In this document: positions 9,557 through 26,683 of the stretch, one piece after another
Numbering within the stretch: position 1 is the stretch's first letter
Layout of the letters: every line of letters starts with the position of its first letter
Assembly (NCBI GenBank): GCA_030148325.1
Contig: JASBTR010000145.1
Location: 1,548 to 65,547, forward strand
Direction: 5' to 3'
Source: Gammaproteobacteria bacterium
GTDB taxonomy: Bacteria > Pseudomonadota > Gammaproteobacteria > UBA6429 > Thiohalophilaceae
DNA length: 64,000 bases
The notes under the pieces: generated by a model
The model's database searches: none
The model's input: the letters and a program-made list of their open reading frames with translations, nothing else
Told to the model about the DNA's origin: nothing
Program-made: the position numbers and the translations under genes

Positions 9557-10018
9557 TTAGTTACTATCCACTATTACATCGTTAGCTGTCAGCATATTTT
9601 GCCCCGTTGCGGTGACGGTATAACACTGGGTTGGGTCGCCTGCGCCATTTACGGCGCCAGCACCGCCTCCACCGCCCAGGACACAGTTTGTGACCACATA
9701 GGAAAAATTCAGGTTGGCGATATTGGCGGCATCCGTCAGTGTGGGATCCCAGGGCGTCGGTAGCCACCGGCGGTTACTGTTGTTGATAAGATTCTGAGTA
9801 GAGGCGCCAATGAAGAAATTCCCGCTTTCTTCAAAGAACTCGAGCTGGGCGAGGTGCAGGAGGGCAATGCTGTCGGCGCCTTCGGCCATGCGGGCCGTGC
9901 GGATGTAGCCGTTATAGGCGGGAATAGCGATAGCGGCAAGAATACCGAGTATGACCATAGCCACCATAATTTCAATTAGGGTGTAGCCGGTATGTGATTG
10001 TTGACGACAATGAAGCAT
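9557..10018 (-). CDS. pilA: Type IV pilin paralogue 1 (pilB-proximal), unusual Tyr at +1
   Basis: Class III signal [40 protein letters not shown] with Glu5. C-terminal Cys pair (TNC...TQC). Confidence 0.85.
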   Translation of the reverse strand: MLHCRQQSHTGYTLIEIMVAMVILGILAAIAIPAYNGYIRTARMAEGADSIALLHLAQLEFFEESGNFFIGASTQNLINNSNRRWLPTPWDPTLTDAANIANLNFSYVVTNCVLGGGGGAGAVNGAGDPTQCYTVTATGQNMLTANDVIVDSN

Positions 10019-10502
10019 GTAGTGTCTCCTGGAGAAAAGGTTACTTTTTTAGTCTCATTGAGGTTGGCACAGGGTTTGTGCCCATGTGTAATCTCAATTT
10101 ACCTGTAGGAGCATATTTTGCTCGCGATCAGATATGCTGAATTTACCTTCAAGTTTAGCATCAGTTTGATTACAGTGTACTTTTTGGGCCTGAGAAAAGC
10201 TGAAAATCCGGTATTTGTGATTGATGTCCGGAACTGGAAAAAAGCCTGAAATTATCAGGGAAGATGCGGTAAGCTGGGAAGATGAATCACGGGTTTGGTT
10301 TTAGAATATTACCGTTGTCTAATATTTGTGATTTAACCGCCAGCTATTGAATATTTCCAGAAAATGCCGACAAGAACAGAGACCGCCGGGATCGGGGGCA
10401 AATTTGACTGGCGTCGCTGCATCGATATCTCTGCAGCGTCGCCACATTTGACCCCGGCCCCATGGAAACTATCGCGCAGAAACAGGTGGACCAGTTAAAC
10501 TT

Positions 10503-11375
10503 ATGTCTGAATCGCTCAGCATTATTTTGCCGGCTAAAAATGAGGCCGCTTCTCTTACCCAACTCCTTCCTGAAATACGTCGCCGCTATCCTGCGGCTGA
10601 AATCATCGTCATTGATGATGGTTCGACCGACAATACGGCTGAAATCTGTGCGCAGAACGATGTCAAATGCGTGAGGCATGCTCATAGTCTGGGCAATGGT
10701 GCGGCCATCAAGCATGGTGCACGCTTCGCCAGTGGCAAGGTGCTGGTTTTCATGGACGCAGATGGCCAGCATGATCCGGCTGACATCGACCGGTTACTGG
10801 AACGGTTATACAGCGGTTTTGATATGGTAGTTGGTGCCCGGGATAGCGCTTCACAGGCGAGCCTGGCGCGCAGGATTGCCAACGGCCTCTATAATCGCAT
10901 GGCAAGCTGGATTGTACAGCGTCCGATCCGGGACCTGACCTCTGGATTCCGTGTCGTGCGGGCGAAAAAATTCAGGCGTTTTCTGTATCTTTTACCTAAC
11001 GGCTTTTCCTATCCGACGACCATTACCATGTCCTTCTTTCGCGCAGGTTACCTGGTGGATTATATTCCTATCACGGCTAACAGGCGGATCGGGAAGAGCC
11101 ATATTCATGTTTTGTCCGACGGCGCGCGTTTTTTACTTATTATCTTCAAGGTCGGTACACTCTATTCGCCACTGAAGATTTTTGTGCCGATAAGTGTCTT
11201 CTTTTTTCTGACCAGTGTGGGCTATTACAGTTACACTTATTTTACTGCCGCCAGGTTTACCAACATGGGTGTGTTGTTGTTCATCATGTCGGTGCTGGTT
11301 TTTCTCATTGGTCTGATTTCTGAACAGATCACAACCCTGATGTATCAGAATCAGCATGTGGATAATGAGGGCTAA
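10503..11375 (+). CDS. GT2 glycosyltransferase of the polyprenyl-phosphate sugar synthase type (DPM1/GtrB/ArnC-like)
   Basis: IILPAKNE...VIDDGSTDNT...DADGQHDP motifs followed by hydrophobic C-terminal helices typical of GtrB/ArnC-like enzymes. Confidence 0.75.
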   Translation: MSESLSIILPAKNEAASLTQLLPEIRRRYPAAEIIVIDDGSTDNTAEICAQNDVKCVRHAHSLGNGAAIKHGARFASGKVLVFMDADGQHDPADIDRLLERLYSGFDMVVGARDSASQASLARRIANGLYNRMASWIVQRPIRDLTSGFRVVRAKKFRRFLYLLPNGFSYPTTITMSFFRAGYLVDYIPITANRRIGKSHIHVLSDGARFLLIIFKVGTLYSPLKIFVPISVFFFLTSVGYYSYTYFTAARFTNMGVLLFIMSVLVFLIGLISEQITTLMYQNQHVDNEG

Positions 11376-11445
11376 ACCAGATTTTTCGGATATCGTGTTA
11401 TGGTCGGATAACCACTTGGGCGTCAAGGTGGAATGATTTATCGTA

Positions 11446-25024: not shown

Positions 25025-25033
25025 TGAAAAAAC

Positions 25034-26443
25034 TTACCGCATTGTTTCACAGAAATAAAGTGTTCTCTGGTCGTTGCCCAGAACGGTTTCTTTTAATACG
25101 CAAAACCTTTTGCGTAGTTCAAGTTCGAAATTTTCTTTTGAATAGTCATCAACCGGTTCATCAGTGGCCTGCATTAAAATGCTCACCATTGGATCATCAA
25201 TATCCACGAACTCAATAACAAGGTATGAACAATTTGATTTTAACCAGTCAAGAAAGTGACTTAATGGAATATAATTGCTGATAACAATGTGATGAATCAG
25301 GGCGAGCGCGATGATTAATTGAGGTTTCCCACGCTCTGTAAATGCATGTCGCTCACACCCATTCCAGCCCTGCGAGGGTGACGGATTGGCCAGATTCATG
25401 CGCAAGGGTAAAATATTACCCGAATTTTTGACGGTAAGATTATTAAATAGATTATTAACCGTGGCGTGATCAGCATCAACAGCAACTACATAATCGGAAT
25501 ATTGAGCAATAATCTTTGAATATTTACCATTATTACATCCGATATCCCAAACAGTATTCCACTTTTCAAATGAACCGGCAAAATGAATAAATTTTTCTTT
25601 TATTTCCGAATCGCTTTCATCATAAGAATGCGTTTCACCATAAGTTTCCCAGTGACTGCTGTCGTGAAGTTTTAGCGTTTTTATAATGTCAATAAGTCCG
25701 CGGATATTATTTGCAATCATTTTCAGTAGATCGTGGTCCGGCAATGACAGTTTGTTTACTTTGTTATTTCGAAGCTTGATATTCTTTTTTGAAATATCCT
25801 GCAATATTACATGGAACAGGACACCTTTCCTGAATACACCTTTGATGCCAAGCATTTTTCGGCATTGCGCCGGTTCGATTCCTTCAAGTTCACTTCGCAA
25901 TAGCGCTGAGCCATCAATGGACTTATATGACTGGAGCATGAGTGGATATAAAAAATGCTGACAGAATTGTCGGTATCCTGACCACAATCCTTCCCCATTG
26001 AACCTGGCAATCGAACCAATATCGATAAAAACCGGTGTTTTTCCCTGCCATTGTATATTGTATGCGCTTCCATCTTTTAAAATATAACCATCCTTGAGAA
26101 GTTCCAGGATAACGTCAAGTTGCAATAACGCCGCTTCTCTAAGCATCTGGAATGGCCATTCATATGGGTATGATATGAACGGTATTTTTTGATGTTTTAA
26201 TATTACAGTCCAGTCGTCATCTAATACAGAGTCAGGAAGACTGTTATCGATGACACTATCAATGATTTTATTCGTTGATATTAGCTTCGAATACGCGTCT
26301 GTTTTTGAAAATAGTTCAAATGTTTCTGCTGCATCGGGGTTTAAACCACGGTAAATCTCACCCTTGAAGTGGAAAACCTGTGCCGTCCTGTCGCGAAAAG
26401 AGCCGCTGTCTATTTTAATGTTTTCTAATGTCTTGTCGGTCAC
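25034..26443 (-). CDS. Two-domain protein: N-terminal kinase-like/unknown domain plus C-terminal class I SAM methyltransferase (NoeA-like)
   Basis: C-terminal SAM motif VWDIGCNNGKYS...VVAVDAD. The N-terminal part has SYPYEW and LKDGSAYNIQWQGKTPVFIDIGS. Confidence 0.6.
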   Translation of the reverse strand: MTDKTLENIKIDSGSFRDRTAQVFHFKGEIYRGLNPDAAETFELFSKTDAYSKLISTNKIIDSVIDNSLPDSVLDDDWTVILKHQKIPFISYPYEWPFQMLREAALLQLDVILELLKDGYILKDGSAYNIQWQGKTPVFIDIGSIARFNGEGLWSGYRQFCQHFLYPLMLQSYKSIDGSALLRSELEGIEPAQCRKMLGIKGVFRKGVLFHVILQDISKKNIKLRNNKVNKLSLPDHDLLKMIANNIRGLIDIIKTLKLHDSSHWETYGETHSYDESDSEIKEKFIHFAGSFEKWNTVWDIGCNNGKYSKIIAQYSDYVVAVDADHATVNNLFNNLTVKNSGNILPLRMNLANPSPSQGWNGCERHAFTERGKPQLIIALALIHHIVISNYIPLSHFLDWLKSNCSYLVIEFVDIDDPMVSILMQATDEPVDDYSKENFELELRKRFCVLKETVLGNDQRTLYFCETMR

Positions 26444-26464
26444 CGGGGTTTTACCAAAATGCTT

Positions 26465-26683
26465 TTAGTCCTGATCCGTATCATGTTCCAGTATGGTTTC
26501 CTTTCTGAGCCCAATTTTAACCAGAAAACTGTGCCAGTATAATTTGATTATTACAATTAACCCTGCAACACCACCTAAAAGTAATTGCAGAAACAGGCTA
26601 CCAGTACCTGGATCAAGGTACGCGTAGGCGGGGGTGGTGCAAAATAAAAAAACAAATACAATCGTAAATTTGGTAACTTTCAT
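26465..26683 (-). CDS. Small membrane protein with signal-like N-terminus and YLDPGTGS motif
   Basis: 72-aa ORF, first gene of the minus-strand run 26683..23282. Two hydrophobic segments. Confidence 0.45.
   Translation of the reverse strand: MKVTKFTIVFVFLFCTTPAYAYLDPGTGSLFLQLLLGGVAGLIVIIKLYWHSFLVKIGLRKETILEHDTDQD

Follow-up and report, generated by a model that had tools for sequence, protein, structure and literature searches.

A putative expanded type IV pilin-accessory cassette pairing a GT-C/TPR enzyme with a variable glycan-gene block in an uncultured vent gammaproteobacterium

The stretch analyzed here, a 64-kb window of contig JASBTR010000145.1 (hereafter "the window"), comes from an uncultured vent gammaproteobacterium known from assemblies. 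Between pilB, encoding the extension ATPase of the type IV pilus (T4P), and pgeF, a list of open reading frames (ORFs) and profile searches reveal 13 intact coding sequences (CDSs) plus an insertion sequence (IS) with a split transposase. On balance, the predicted gene functions and the comparison of related loci incline us to view this interval (the island) as an expanded type IV pilin-accessory cassette for periplasmic O-glycosylation of a pilin, equipped with a variable block of genes for elaborating the glycan. Two genes are central to this reading, namely one for a 658-aa membrane protein, predicted to join a glycosyltransferase (GT) of the GT-C fold to tetratricopeptide repeats (TPRs), and one for the family-2 GT designated GT2a. 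The island and its boundary genes are laid out as follows.

7574..9322, minus strand: pilB, T4P extension ATPase, left island boundary (Pfam T2SSE, E 6e-152, plus MshEN)
9557..10018, minus strand: pilin 1, 153 aa (N_methyl, E 1.6e-8)
10503..11375, plus strand: GT2a, 290 aa (Glycos_transf_2, E 2e-31)
11446..12384, plus strand: GT2b, 312 aa, cytoplasmic family-2 GT (Glycos_transf_2, E 9e-15)
12381..13526, minus strand: GT-B-fold GT, 381 aa, C-terminal half WcaI-like (Glyco_trans_1_4, E 4e-9; WcaI family, E 3e-17, below cut-off)
13510..14418, minus strand: GT2c, 302 aa, GT2 resembling the rhamnosyltransferase subfamily (TIGR01556, E 1e-41, below cut-off)
14549..16276, minus strand: 575-aa fusion protein with N-terminal class I S-adenosylmethionine-dependent methyltransferase (Methyltransf_11/25/12 at residues 94–200)
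16280..17575, minus strand: Wzx-type MOP flippase, 431 aa (Polysacc_synt_3 plus Polysacc_synt, E 2e-18; MOP flippase family match)
17681..19363, minus strand: IS of ~1.68 kb, IS5/IS1182-like (terminal inverted repeats; DUF772 plus DDE_Tnp_1)
19401..21377, minus strand: predicted GT-C-fold membrane GT with C-terminal TPR domain, 658 aa (TPR_2, E 6e-8; structure models)
21374..22234, minus strand: TfpX/TfpZ/FimB-family pilin accessory protein, 286 aa (NF041437, E 2e-37)
22343..22365, minus strand: Rho-independent terminator-like hairpin (top match of a terminator search; folding)
22389..22925, minus strand: pilin 2, 178 aa (N_methyl, E 4e-11)
23057..23071, minus strand: sigma54-type -24/-12 element TGGCACGCACCATGC (GG-N10-GC; pattern search, one mismatch)
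23282..25024, minus strand: AlkP-superfamily membrane enzyme, 580 aa, N-terminal transmembrane block plus Sulfatase domain (Sulfatase, E 1e-24)
25034..26443, minus strand: 469-aa cytoplasmic protein (Methyltransf_23, E 0.0018 only)
26465..26683, minus strand: 72-aa YLDPGTGS protein (ORF call)
26811..27569, minus strand: pgeF (Cu-oxidase_4/YfiH), right island boundary (PF02578, E 5e-75)

The gene content, order, strands, and coordinates that an earlier note had given for this interval were all reproduced, and profile searches bore out its family assignments. These comprise two N_methyl pilins, three Glycos_transf_2 proteins, one GT-B enzyme, a Polysacc_synt/MOP flippase, and a DUF772 plus DDE_Tnp_1 transposase. 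Also identified were the protein with transmembrane helices and C-terminal TPRs, the TfpX/TfpZ-family protein, a membrane protein with a Sulfatase domain, two methyltransferase-containing fusions, and the 72-aa YLDPGTGS ORF.

The 658-aa protein was modeled with AlphaFold at full length, on the basis of 25 homologues (pLDDT 86.9), and residues 1–440 were remodeled alone (pLDDT 76). The full-length model displays ~11–12 long helices before residue 431, followed by a TPR solenoid from ~residue 435. A fold search with the entire model returned TPR proteins only, and TPR structures topped both the PDB-sequence and the fold searches, confirming the C-terminal TPR assignment. When residues 1–440 were compared with PDB folds, all high-probability matches were GT-C enzymes, i.e., Pmt4, yeast Stt3, archaeal AglB, Pmt1/Pmt2, EmbB, and ArnT; the best of these was Pmt4 (E 3e-3, probability 1.0, TM-score 0.47), and transporter folds matched with probabilities < 0.35 and TM-scores near 0.13. 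The residue pair D40-D41 (GPFILDDIPS), which belongs to periplasmic loop 1 and comes immediately behind the first transmembrane helix, is invariant in 25/25 homologues; the same alignment shows Y300-x6-P307, H316-D317, and E380-H-R-N-Y384 to be invariant as well. On these models the protein is predicted to be a GT-C-fold enzyme with a C-terminal periplasmic TPR domain (hereafter GT-C/TPR), and we propose that it serves as a pilin O-glycosyl (or oligosaccharyl) transferase.

GT2a is built from a GT2 domain and two hydrophobic C-terminal transmembrane segments, as in DPMS/ArnC/GtrB-type enzymes. Its PDB sequence matches were DPMS (5mlz, the best), ArnC, and GtrB (5ekp), and its NCBIfam matches were AglJ (top, E 9e-36), PpgS, a Dol-P-hexose transferase, and ArnC, all below their curated cut-offs. 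With this architecture and these matches, GT2a falls among the GtrB/DPM1/ArnC-type polyprenyl-phosphate GTs, and its proposed function is to make the lipid-phosphate-sugar donor. It is the best-conserved gene of the island, with 88% identity in the related locus L002 and 63–64% in Sulfuricaulis limicola (L005) and in locus L006; the GT-C/TPR enzyme is less conserved in these three loci (39–55%).

Homologues of the GT-C/TPR protein number > 2,600 in the protein collection, and a scan of one genome per species yielded ~590 stretches encoding relatives of it; all locus counts given here cover the best 79 of these ~590. A pilin ORF was found in the flank of 64/79 loci, and in 57 of the 79 it immediately precedes the GT-C gene in the same orientation, at a distance of <= 600 bp. 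An orthologue of GT2a (51–67% identity) is present in 55/79 loci, mostly <= 300 bp downstream of the GT-C gene(s). Where enough flank was available on both sides (n = 33), 32 loci carry the pilin and 27 carry both pilin and GT2a. The pilins adjoining GT-C genes are classic PilA-type major pilins. The canonical order of the unit is pilA, GT-C/TPR, GT2; the window departs from the direct adjacency of pilin and GT-C in having a TfpX-family gene in between. Carriers include Acidiferrobacterales, Sulfuricaulis, Gallionella, Cycloclasticus, Methylomonas methanica, Methylobacter marinus, Variovorax ginsengisoli, Undibacterium, and Exilibacterium. Adjacency of pilin and GT-C genes extends across several orders and was seen in no fewer than three distinct chromosomal settings.

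Of the relatives with long contigs, the closest (L002/L003, GCA_011051645.1; the 55%-identity relative) has the gene order bamD-rluD-(methyltransferase)-pgeF, pilin (169 aa), FimB, GT-C/TPR, MurJ/MATE-type flippase, GT4, GT4, AsnB-like, GT4, methyltransferase, GT2a, pilin (151 aa), pilB. With its two pilin genes, the pgeF–pilB interval of this relative is organized like the island and has a different set of glycan genes, an outcome of the comparison with relatives that the earlier note had put forward as a check. A similar glycan gene set with a flippase stands beside a type II secretion system locus in L006. The Sulfuricaulis locus (L005) reads pilSR, pilA, two GT-C copies, GT2a, methyltransferase, and a Wzy_C/TPR protein, and that of Methylobacter marinus reads pilA, GT-C, GT2a, methyltransferase, GT4, and an AsnB fragment.

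Further genes for glycan synthesis are concentrated on one side of this unit. Using family hidden Markov models (HMMs) built for the analysis, with the upstream flank as internal control, we counted extra GT genes in the 26 loci having both flanks: 29 such genes (in 17/26 loci) lie <= 8 kb downstream of the GT-C gene versus 2 (in 1/26) <= 8 kb upstream (Wilcoxon p = 0.001). A GT4 of ~400 aa directly follows GT2a in 13/35 loci. In the window, five genes and the IS separate the GT-C gene from GT2a, and several of the island's glycan genes recur beside other cassettes: homologues of the GT-B enzyme (33–50% identity) adjoin pilA-GT-C-GT2a cassettes in L014, L044, L054, and L062, homologues of GT2c are found in cassette loci L054 (45%) and L063 (37%), weak homologues of GT2b in L027 and L040, and homologues of the 575-aa fusion (35–36% identity) in L022 and L040. 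At the position of the window's Wzx, L002 and L006 encode a different MOP/MurJ-like flippase. This linkage of GT-C, GT2a, and pilin across species, together with the downstream enrichment of GTs, supports the idea, already voiced in the earlier note, that the island is a locus for glycan modification with a link to pilins.

The 575-aa fusion had been labeled WbdD-like. Its methyltransferase domain stands; a sequence match to WbdD in the PDB was not obtained, and the label now rests on the architecture and on a kinase-like D-x4-N motif. Its C-terminal ~370 aa match no Pfam family or PDB sequence and contain, by eye, the motif D-x4-N ... ID-x-E, which aligns weakly with the 469-aa protein. The fusion may cap or decorate the glycan. 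The IS is bounded by terminal inverted repeats (17681–17717 and 19327–19363) with the outer 18 nt perfect, and its transposase is split into a 196-aa ORF (18720–19310) and a 287-aa ORF (17878–18741) that overlap by 22 nt. It is inserted in the intergenic gap between the GT-C and flippase genes, a gap of 38 bp in L002, and an independent Logan assembly of the strain (L001) contains it as well.

In several loci the GT-C gene itself is multiplied: 2–3 tandem GT-C/TPR paralogues follow pilA in L005 (10001–13871), L014, L017, L020, L021, and L081 (Sulfuricaulis, Gallionella, and Acidithiobacillales), which suggests sequential sugar additions, i.e., that glycan extension can be periplasmic. Separately, at 16611–18542 of the Sulfuricaulis limicola locus L005, a Wzy_C protein with TPRs is encoded a few genes past pilA-GT-C-GT-C-GT2; this could be a second, PglL-like transferase. 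At 15938–16924 of the Methylobacter marinus A45 locus (L082), a transposase-like ORF abuts the glycan genes and truncates the AsnB-like gene, and the GT4 there is apparently split (155 + 227 aa); such cassettes may be repeatedly subject to IS activity.

The two pilins of the island are distinct proteins. Pilin 1 adjoins pilB; its leader reads ...HTG|YTLIEIM, it has a C-terminal Cys pair, and it shares 61% identity with the pilin that L002 encodes next to pilB. Only its N-terminal 45 aa align with pilin 2, the globular parts being unrelated. Orthologues of pilin 2 occupy the same position in L002/L003/L004 (57% identity) and L007 (67%). The L007 pilin (10155–10658) is 11 residues shorter than pilin 2 and lacks its CFAAGNC Cys pair, and the L002/L003/L004 orthologues have no Cys at all. 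The sigma54-type element TGGCACGCACCATGC lies 132 nt 5' of the pilin 2 ATG in the correct orientation. The sensor kinase PilS (34575–36206; 6TM_PilS, HisKA, and HATPase) and the regulator PilR (36231–37577; receiver, sigma54 activator, and HTH_8) are encoded on the plus strand ~8 kb from the island. Pilin 2 is likely the cassette's PilSR/sigma54-driven pilin, and we propose it as the glycosylation target. A second sigma54-like element, TGGCACAGGGTTTGT, was noted on the plus strand at 10065–10079, where 484 bp separate pilin 1 from GT2a; this element points to GT2a/GT2b and could be due to chance.

Starting 24 nt 3' of the pilin 2 stop codon, and ahead of the accessory genes, the terminator-like hairpin comprises a 16-bp stem followed by a U-run (folding energy -27.4 kcal/mol, z = -5.4; 0/200 shuffles equally stable). 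In P. aeruginosa and other genera, pilin-accessory cassettes commonly have a terminator after the pilin gene (PMC11841053). The TfpX-family stop codon overlaps the GT-C start by 4 nt. Its product covers 239/240 profile positions of NF041437 at 129 bits versus a curated cut-off of 200, and most of its homologues carry Pfam FimB (PF27166); the family-model match, size, N-terminal transmembrane helices, and gene position after a pilin place it in the TfpX/TfpY/TfpZ/FimB group. Among the cassette loci, TfpX/FimB genes are restricted to the closest relatives of the window; tfpX is also rare among tfpW carriers (bioRxiv 10.1101/2020.04.19.049825). By analogy with TfpY-like proteins, for which a role in pilin assembly has been described (PMC11841053), the TfpX-like protein probably aids pilin assembly rather than glycosylation.

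The mechanism we propose, with a pilin as acceptor, is modeled on DPM1 with PMT, GtrB with Gtr*, CsbB with YfhO, and the D-arabinofuranose (D-Araf) pathway with TfpW. On the cytoplasmic side of the membrane, GT2a would use a nucleotide sugar to glycosylate polyprenyl phosphate, and the lipid-linked sugar would then be flipped to the periplasmic face. There, the TPR domain of the GT-C enzyme would hold the pilin, allowing the Asp-Asp site of loop 1 to transfer the sugar to Ser/Thr of pilin 2 before pilus assembly. GT2b, the GT-B enzyme, GT2c, and the 575-aa fusion would extend or decorate the lipid-linked sugar to a short oligosaccharide, to be flipped by Wzx, resulting in a strain-variable pilin glycan. 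We favor such extension of the primer by the additional cytoplasmic GTs and Wzx because their genes are located between the partner genes and no other initiator is present; it is nonetheless the least secure step of the model. A more detailed version, in which an AglJ/DPM1-like GT2 primes polyprenyl monophosphate, soluble GTs and a capping enzyme extend it, a MOP flippase exports the product, and a PMT/AglB-like GT-C/TPR enzyme transfers it en bloc to the pilin, would make the block between the partners an exchangeable module of the serotype kind, common among environmental Gamma- and Betaproteobacteria; in the lineage of the window, the AlkP module might add phospho-decoration. Taken as a whole, we hold that version to be speculative and rather improbable.

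The group IV cassette of P. aeruginosa / P. paraeruginosa, pilA-tfpW-tfpX (reported by Kus, 2008), encodes the arabinosyltransferase TfpW. TfpW is a GT-C protein of 646 aa with 11 transmembrane segments, a DDX motif, and a C-terminal TPR domain, and its gene adjoins pilA; in P. indica and K. denitrificans, pilA-tfpW is clustered with genes for biosynthesis of the donor sugar (bioRxiv 10.1101/2020.04.19.049825). Compared by description, the 658-aa protein shares with TfpW the GT-C fold, a length of ~650 aa, ~11 transmembrane segments, the Asp-Asp of loop 1, a C-terminal TPR domain, and adjacency to a pilin gene. At the level of the cassette, the two have in common a TfpX-family gene, a terminator after the pilin gene, (here probable) PilSR/sigma54 control, and an occasional clustering with donor-synthesis genes. 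The claim that no comparable pilin locus had been described was therefore overstated, since pilin, GT-C/TPR, and TfpX together constitute the group IV (TfpW/TfpX) cassette type. Differences are evident nonetheless: (i) the island order is pilin, TfpX, GT-C rather than pilA-tfpW-tfpX; (ii) the donor partner is a DPM1/GtrB-type GT2 and not the PRPP/DprE1/DprE2 D-Araf route, with no D-Araf donor genes (PPPRS, DprE1, and DprE2) found in the island or the 64-kb window; (iii) the island adds Wzx, three further cytoplasmic GTs, and a methyltransferase fusion; and (iv) the motifs YX6PFX7P and YX6PX5P are absent from the 658-aa protein by regular-expression search, only the family-invariant Y300-x6-P307 being present. 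The TfpX-family search returned environmental sequences only and no Pseudomonas match.

Several other systems follow a related logic. Dol-P-Man/polyprenyl-P-Man synthase (DPM1/Ppm1, GT2) and PMT (GT-C, GT39) likewise form a two-enzyme pair acting on a Ser/Thr acceptor at the non-cytoplasmic side, and Pmt4 is the best fold match; unlike PMT, the 658-aa protein has no Pfam PMT/PMT_2 match, carries TPRs in place of a MIR domain, and appears dedicated to the adjoining pilin. In the GtrA/GtrB/Gtr*, CsbB/YfhO, and ArnC/ArnT systems, a GT2 makes an undecaprenyl-phosphate (Und-P)-linked sugar, which is flipped and then transferred by a GT-C enzyme outside the cytoplasm (PMC11127046; PMC5836110), and the adjacency of GT2 and GT-C genes is also seen in most members of the family described here. 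These three-component systems differ in that they modify O-antigen, lipid A, or teichoic acid, and not a (predicted) pilin acceptor, and in the use of GtrA where the expanded loci have MOP/Wzx. The classical GtrABC system was accordingly rejected for want of GtrA. Archaeal Agl N-glycosylation provides an analogy only: AglJ is the top NCBIfam match of GT2a, AglB is among the fold matches, and an Agl-type monophosphate primer extended by soluble GTs would explain an island without a phosphoglycosyl-transferase initiator; there the linkage is N- rather than the proposed O-type, and the host is not bacterial.

The TfpO/PilO and PglL systems couple a pilin to a short oligosaccharide, as proposed for the island, with variable glycan genes; their glycans are linked to undecaprenyl diphosphate and flipped by Wzx or PglF. 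Their transferases differ from the GT-C/TPR enzyme, and no island protein matched the Wzy_C/O-antigen-ligase family. A Wzx/Wzy O-antigen or capsule cluster was rejected, given that the island has Wzx and GTs only; profile searches of the island and the 64-kb window found no phosphoglycosyl-transferase initiator, Wzy, Wzz, WaaL, nucleotide-sugar, or D-Araf genes. The cyanobacterial Ogt pilin glycosylation system (PMC9306852), which relies on an unrelated cytoplasmic GT41 enzyme, was set aside. Full-text literature searches, with their incomplete coverage and hence as absence of evidence only, found no description of a pilA–GT-C/TPR–GT2 cassette or its expanded forms; this widespread cassette is apparently undescribed.

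A number of observations count against the glycosylation cassette as we construe it. At the level of the transferase, the GT-C fold match is modest even at its best (E 3e-3, TM-score 0.47), the transmembrane domain has neither a PDB sequence-profile match nor a meaningful Pfam match at E <= 10, and P. aeruginosa TfpW (AAM52060.1) is not among the top 120 homologues of the GT-C enzyme, their likeness resting on description. The pairing with GT2a is also imperfect, in that the window's GT2a is 8 kb from the GT-C gene on the opposite strand, and four Cycloclasticus loci (L026, L028, L035, and L046) have pilA and GT-C with no GT2a within 10 kb, so that their donor synthase would be elsewhere or different. 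(In these four loci, the downstream ORFs, of ~365, ~595, and ~345 aa, are conserved and housekeeping-like.) The sigma54 pattern is not above chance in the window (8 found versus 6.9 expected), and TGGCACGCACCATGC is for that reason used as weak positional evidence only, through its position and orientation. No GtrA-type flippase was found, nor a free-standing ORF of 100–150 aa in the island, where small ORFs overlap larger genes. A flippase accompanies extra GTs in 6/17 loci versus 3/21 loci without them (p = 0.25), a comparison for which the flippase HMM may be incomplete and the flanks reach <= 10 kb. To our knowledge, oligosaccharide assembly on polyprenyl monophosphate is rare in bacteria, which makes the role of the additional GTs the weakest step. 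Lastly, expression may be impaired by the IS that separates the GT-C gene from Wzx.

Composition sets the island apart from its surroundings. In 1-kb windows, the GC content of the 12–26.7-kb region is 0.418 +/- 0.035 (n = 14) versus 0.527 +/- 0.035 (n = 46) for the remainder of the window (Mann-Whitney p = 7e-8), and the tetranucleotide correlation with the core is 0.38–0.51 for the island versus 0.88–0.95 for control segments. The compositional break that the earlier note had claimed is thus real in both profiles; its contrast of 37% versus 63% GC, read from single 60-nt lines, was exaggerated, as the core is at ~53% and the island at ~42%. Both pilin genes are indeed GC-normal (pilin 1, 0.532; pilin 2, 0.551; GC3, 0.58–0.60), GT2a is nearly core-like (0.494), and values for the remaining island genes lie at 0.376–0.461. 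To regard the cargo as foreign and the pilins as native is nonetheless too simple: the cassettes of relatives are also lower in GC than their own flanks (L005 and L006; L002 slightly), and pilin 2 itself turns over. Between the window and its strain-level relative L007, bamD, rluD, pgeF, and the three genes of the AlkP module are 95–100% identical, while pilin 2 is only 67% and a TfpX fragment 72% identical. Because of this divergence amid near-identical neighbors, the pilin 2 allele appears to have been replaced, or to have quickly diverged, between near-identical strains. Low GC and the differing gene sets of relatives mark the locus, on sequence grounds, as a diversifying, horizontally exchanged site. 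A classical tRNA-integrated genomic island was rejected, the window having no tRNA gene and no Rfam match.

Beyond pilB follow pilC, pilD, and coaE; beyond pgeF follow rluD and bamD, and this bamD-rluD-pgeF flank is kept in L002, L003, and L007. Between the island and pilSR lie pgeF, rluD, bamD, a glnB-like gene, nadE, and sucCD. L002 additionally has a gene for a 246-aa methyltransferase (6552–7292) between rluD and pgeF; it is absent from the window, so the right flank of the island is variable too.

The three genes between pgeF and pilin 2 form a unit of their own. In the AlkP-superfamily enzyme, D187, T229, H377, H382, and D455-H456 are invariant among 14 homologues and no C/S-x-P-x-R sulfatase motif is present; because of these residues, the sequence fits an LtaS/EptA-type Thr-nucleophile phosphotransferase rather than a sulfatase. 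Like LtaS, EptA, PptA, and GacH, this 580-aa protein has an N-terminal transmembrane block, a predicted periplasmic AlkP-fold domain, and an invariant Thr with Asp/His metal ligands; unlike them, it comes with two conserved partner genes and shows no linkage to pilins outside this lineage. Its PDB matches (LtaS, YejM, and sulfatases) are confined to the C-terminal half, at very low similarity, and the family is rare (18 matches). The 469-aa partner has no PDB sequence match; its N-terminal ~250 aa match no Pfam family and contain a kinase-like D-x4-N ... ID-x-G motif, and its C-terminal part has a weak class I methyltransferase match. The 72-aa partner consists of a signal peptide (..AYA|), the YLDPGTGS motif, and one transmembrane helix. 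The trio (AlkP, ~450–470 aa, and ~70 aa) recurs together in L008 (8001–12418; 6.4-Mb genome) and L009 (8001–11958; a Halioglobus metagenome-assembled genome), without a pilin nearby; here, homologues of the 469-aa protein (32–37% identity) adjoin the AlkP homologue and the neighboring small ORFs keep the motif A|YLDPG[TS]GS. No pilin gene was called near the AlkP homologue in L008, L009, L089, L090, or L091, L089 being a 3.2-kb contig. The trio occupies the corresponding position in L007 (95–100% identity), is absent from the L002/L003 island, and has no homologues in the 79 cassette loci (0/79). Because it recurs away from pilins and is missing from these cassettes, we read it as an independent mobile module that would have entered the pgeF–pilin 2 interval in this lineage. 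The phospho-form pilin modification suggested in the earlier note thus finds no comparative support, and the pilin or its glycan is a possible target of the module.

How much of the island acts on the pilin can be construed in other ways. GT2a and GT-C/TPR alone might modify the pilin with a single sugar or a homopolymer, leaving GT2b, the GT-B enzyme, GT2c, the fusion, and Wzx as an independent unit for a surface glycan (lipopolysaccharide [LPS], capsule, or general protein glycosylation) that shares the recombination hot spot and has its initiator, polymerase, and ligase elsewhere. We consider this the most serious of the alternatives, albeit one that probably does not apply. Low-GC mosaic content that differs among relatives is typical of surface-polysaccharide loci, the correlation between flippases and extra GTs is not significant, many loci are a bare three-gene cassette, and the tandem GT-C paralogues suggest periplasmic extension; moreover, bacterial cytoplasmic GTs normally extend primers linked to undecaprenyl diphosphate (Und-PP) and not to Und-P. 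Such a separation would have to accommodate the strong downstream enrichment of extra GTs, their position between the two paired genes in the window, L002, and L006, the recurrence of the window's GT homologues beside other cassettes, and a 64-kb window containing no initiator, Wzy, or ligase. It is very unlikely, in turn, that the island is a decaying remnant, in which the IS and the separation of GT2a have uncoupled the pathway and left little or no pilin modification in this strain: the split-transposase IS does sit in an intergenic gap of the operon and GT2a is on the opposite strand, but none of the 13 CDSs is disrupted or truncated in comparison with its homologues, the IS lies between genes, and in L002 GT2a is also on the opposite strand without any IS.

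Conversely, more of the island might belong together than we suppose, with the AlkP trio adding a phospho-substituent to pilin 2 or its glycan in one composite system. Neisseria PptA acts on pilin, and streptococcal GacH adds glycerol phosphate to a side-chain sugar installed by a GT-C enzyme; with its GT2, Wzx-type flippase, GT-C enzyme, and LtaS-like transferase, the island bears a resemblance to the streptococcal Gac system. Pilin 2 is immediately preceded by the trio, in the same orientation, here as well as in L007, and the invariant D187, T229, and D455-H456 would suit a Thr-nucleophile phosphotransferase with a periplasmic domain. Against this, the trio is self-contained and without pilins in L008/L009, other AlkP homologues occupy unrelated contexts, the otherwise syntenic L002/L003 island and the 79 cassette loci do without it, and between it and pilin 2 lie 356 bp that include the latter's own sigma54-like promoter; we judge a composite system to be unlikely. 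Least probable of all, in our estimation, is that GT-C/TPR and GT2a modify something other than pilin (LPS, an envelope glycan, or many periplasmic proteins), their adjacency to pilA reflecting co-regulation or hitch-hiking. Most characterized bacterial GT2 and GT-C pairs do decorate O-antigen, lipid A, or teichoic acids (PMC11127046; PMC5836110). Immediate same-strand pilin adjacency in 57/79 species, which represent several orders and no fewer than three chromosomal contexts, is however difficult to reconcile with a nonpilin target, as are the TPRs (a protein-binding domain), the nearest folds (PMT, oligosaccharyltransferase, and AglB, all protein GTs), and the TfpW precedent.

Pilin glycosylation alters the surface chemistry of the pilus, and in P. 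aeruginosa only the TfpO/PglL and TfpW enzyme types are well studied in this respect. If the pilin-glycosylation reading is correct, TfpW-type chemistry, so far confined to a single sugar (D-Araf) and a few genera, would broaden into a general and modular system for coating pilins, and the GT-C/TPR family could offer new protein O-glycosyltransferases for glycoengineering. The carrier species are sulfur and iron oxidizers, methanotrophs, and hydrocarbon degraders, and many of their loci contain a variable glycan-gene block that is analogous to O-antigen serotype loci yet would be dedicated to the pilus. In P. aeruginosa, pilin glycosylation blocks pilus-specific phages (bioRxiv 10.1101/150227); by analogy, such phages may drive diversification of the locus. 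The AlkP three-gene module, here separated out, could be a subject of study by itself.

Elsewhere in the window, a second low-GC patch (59001–61000; 0.42–0.43) spans a 516-aa ORF of the GDSL-lipase family (59201–60751). An adjoining HMGL-like/homocitrate-synthase-like ORF contains a perfect TGGCAC-N5-TTGC match at 61130–61144.

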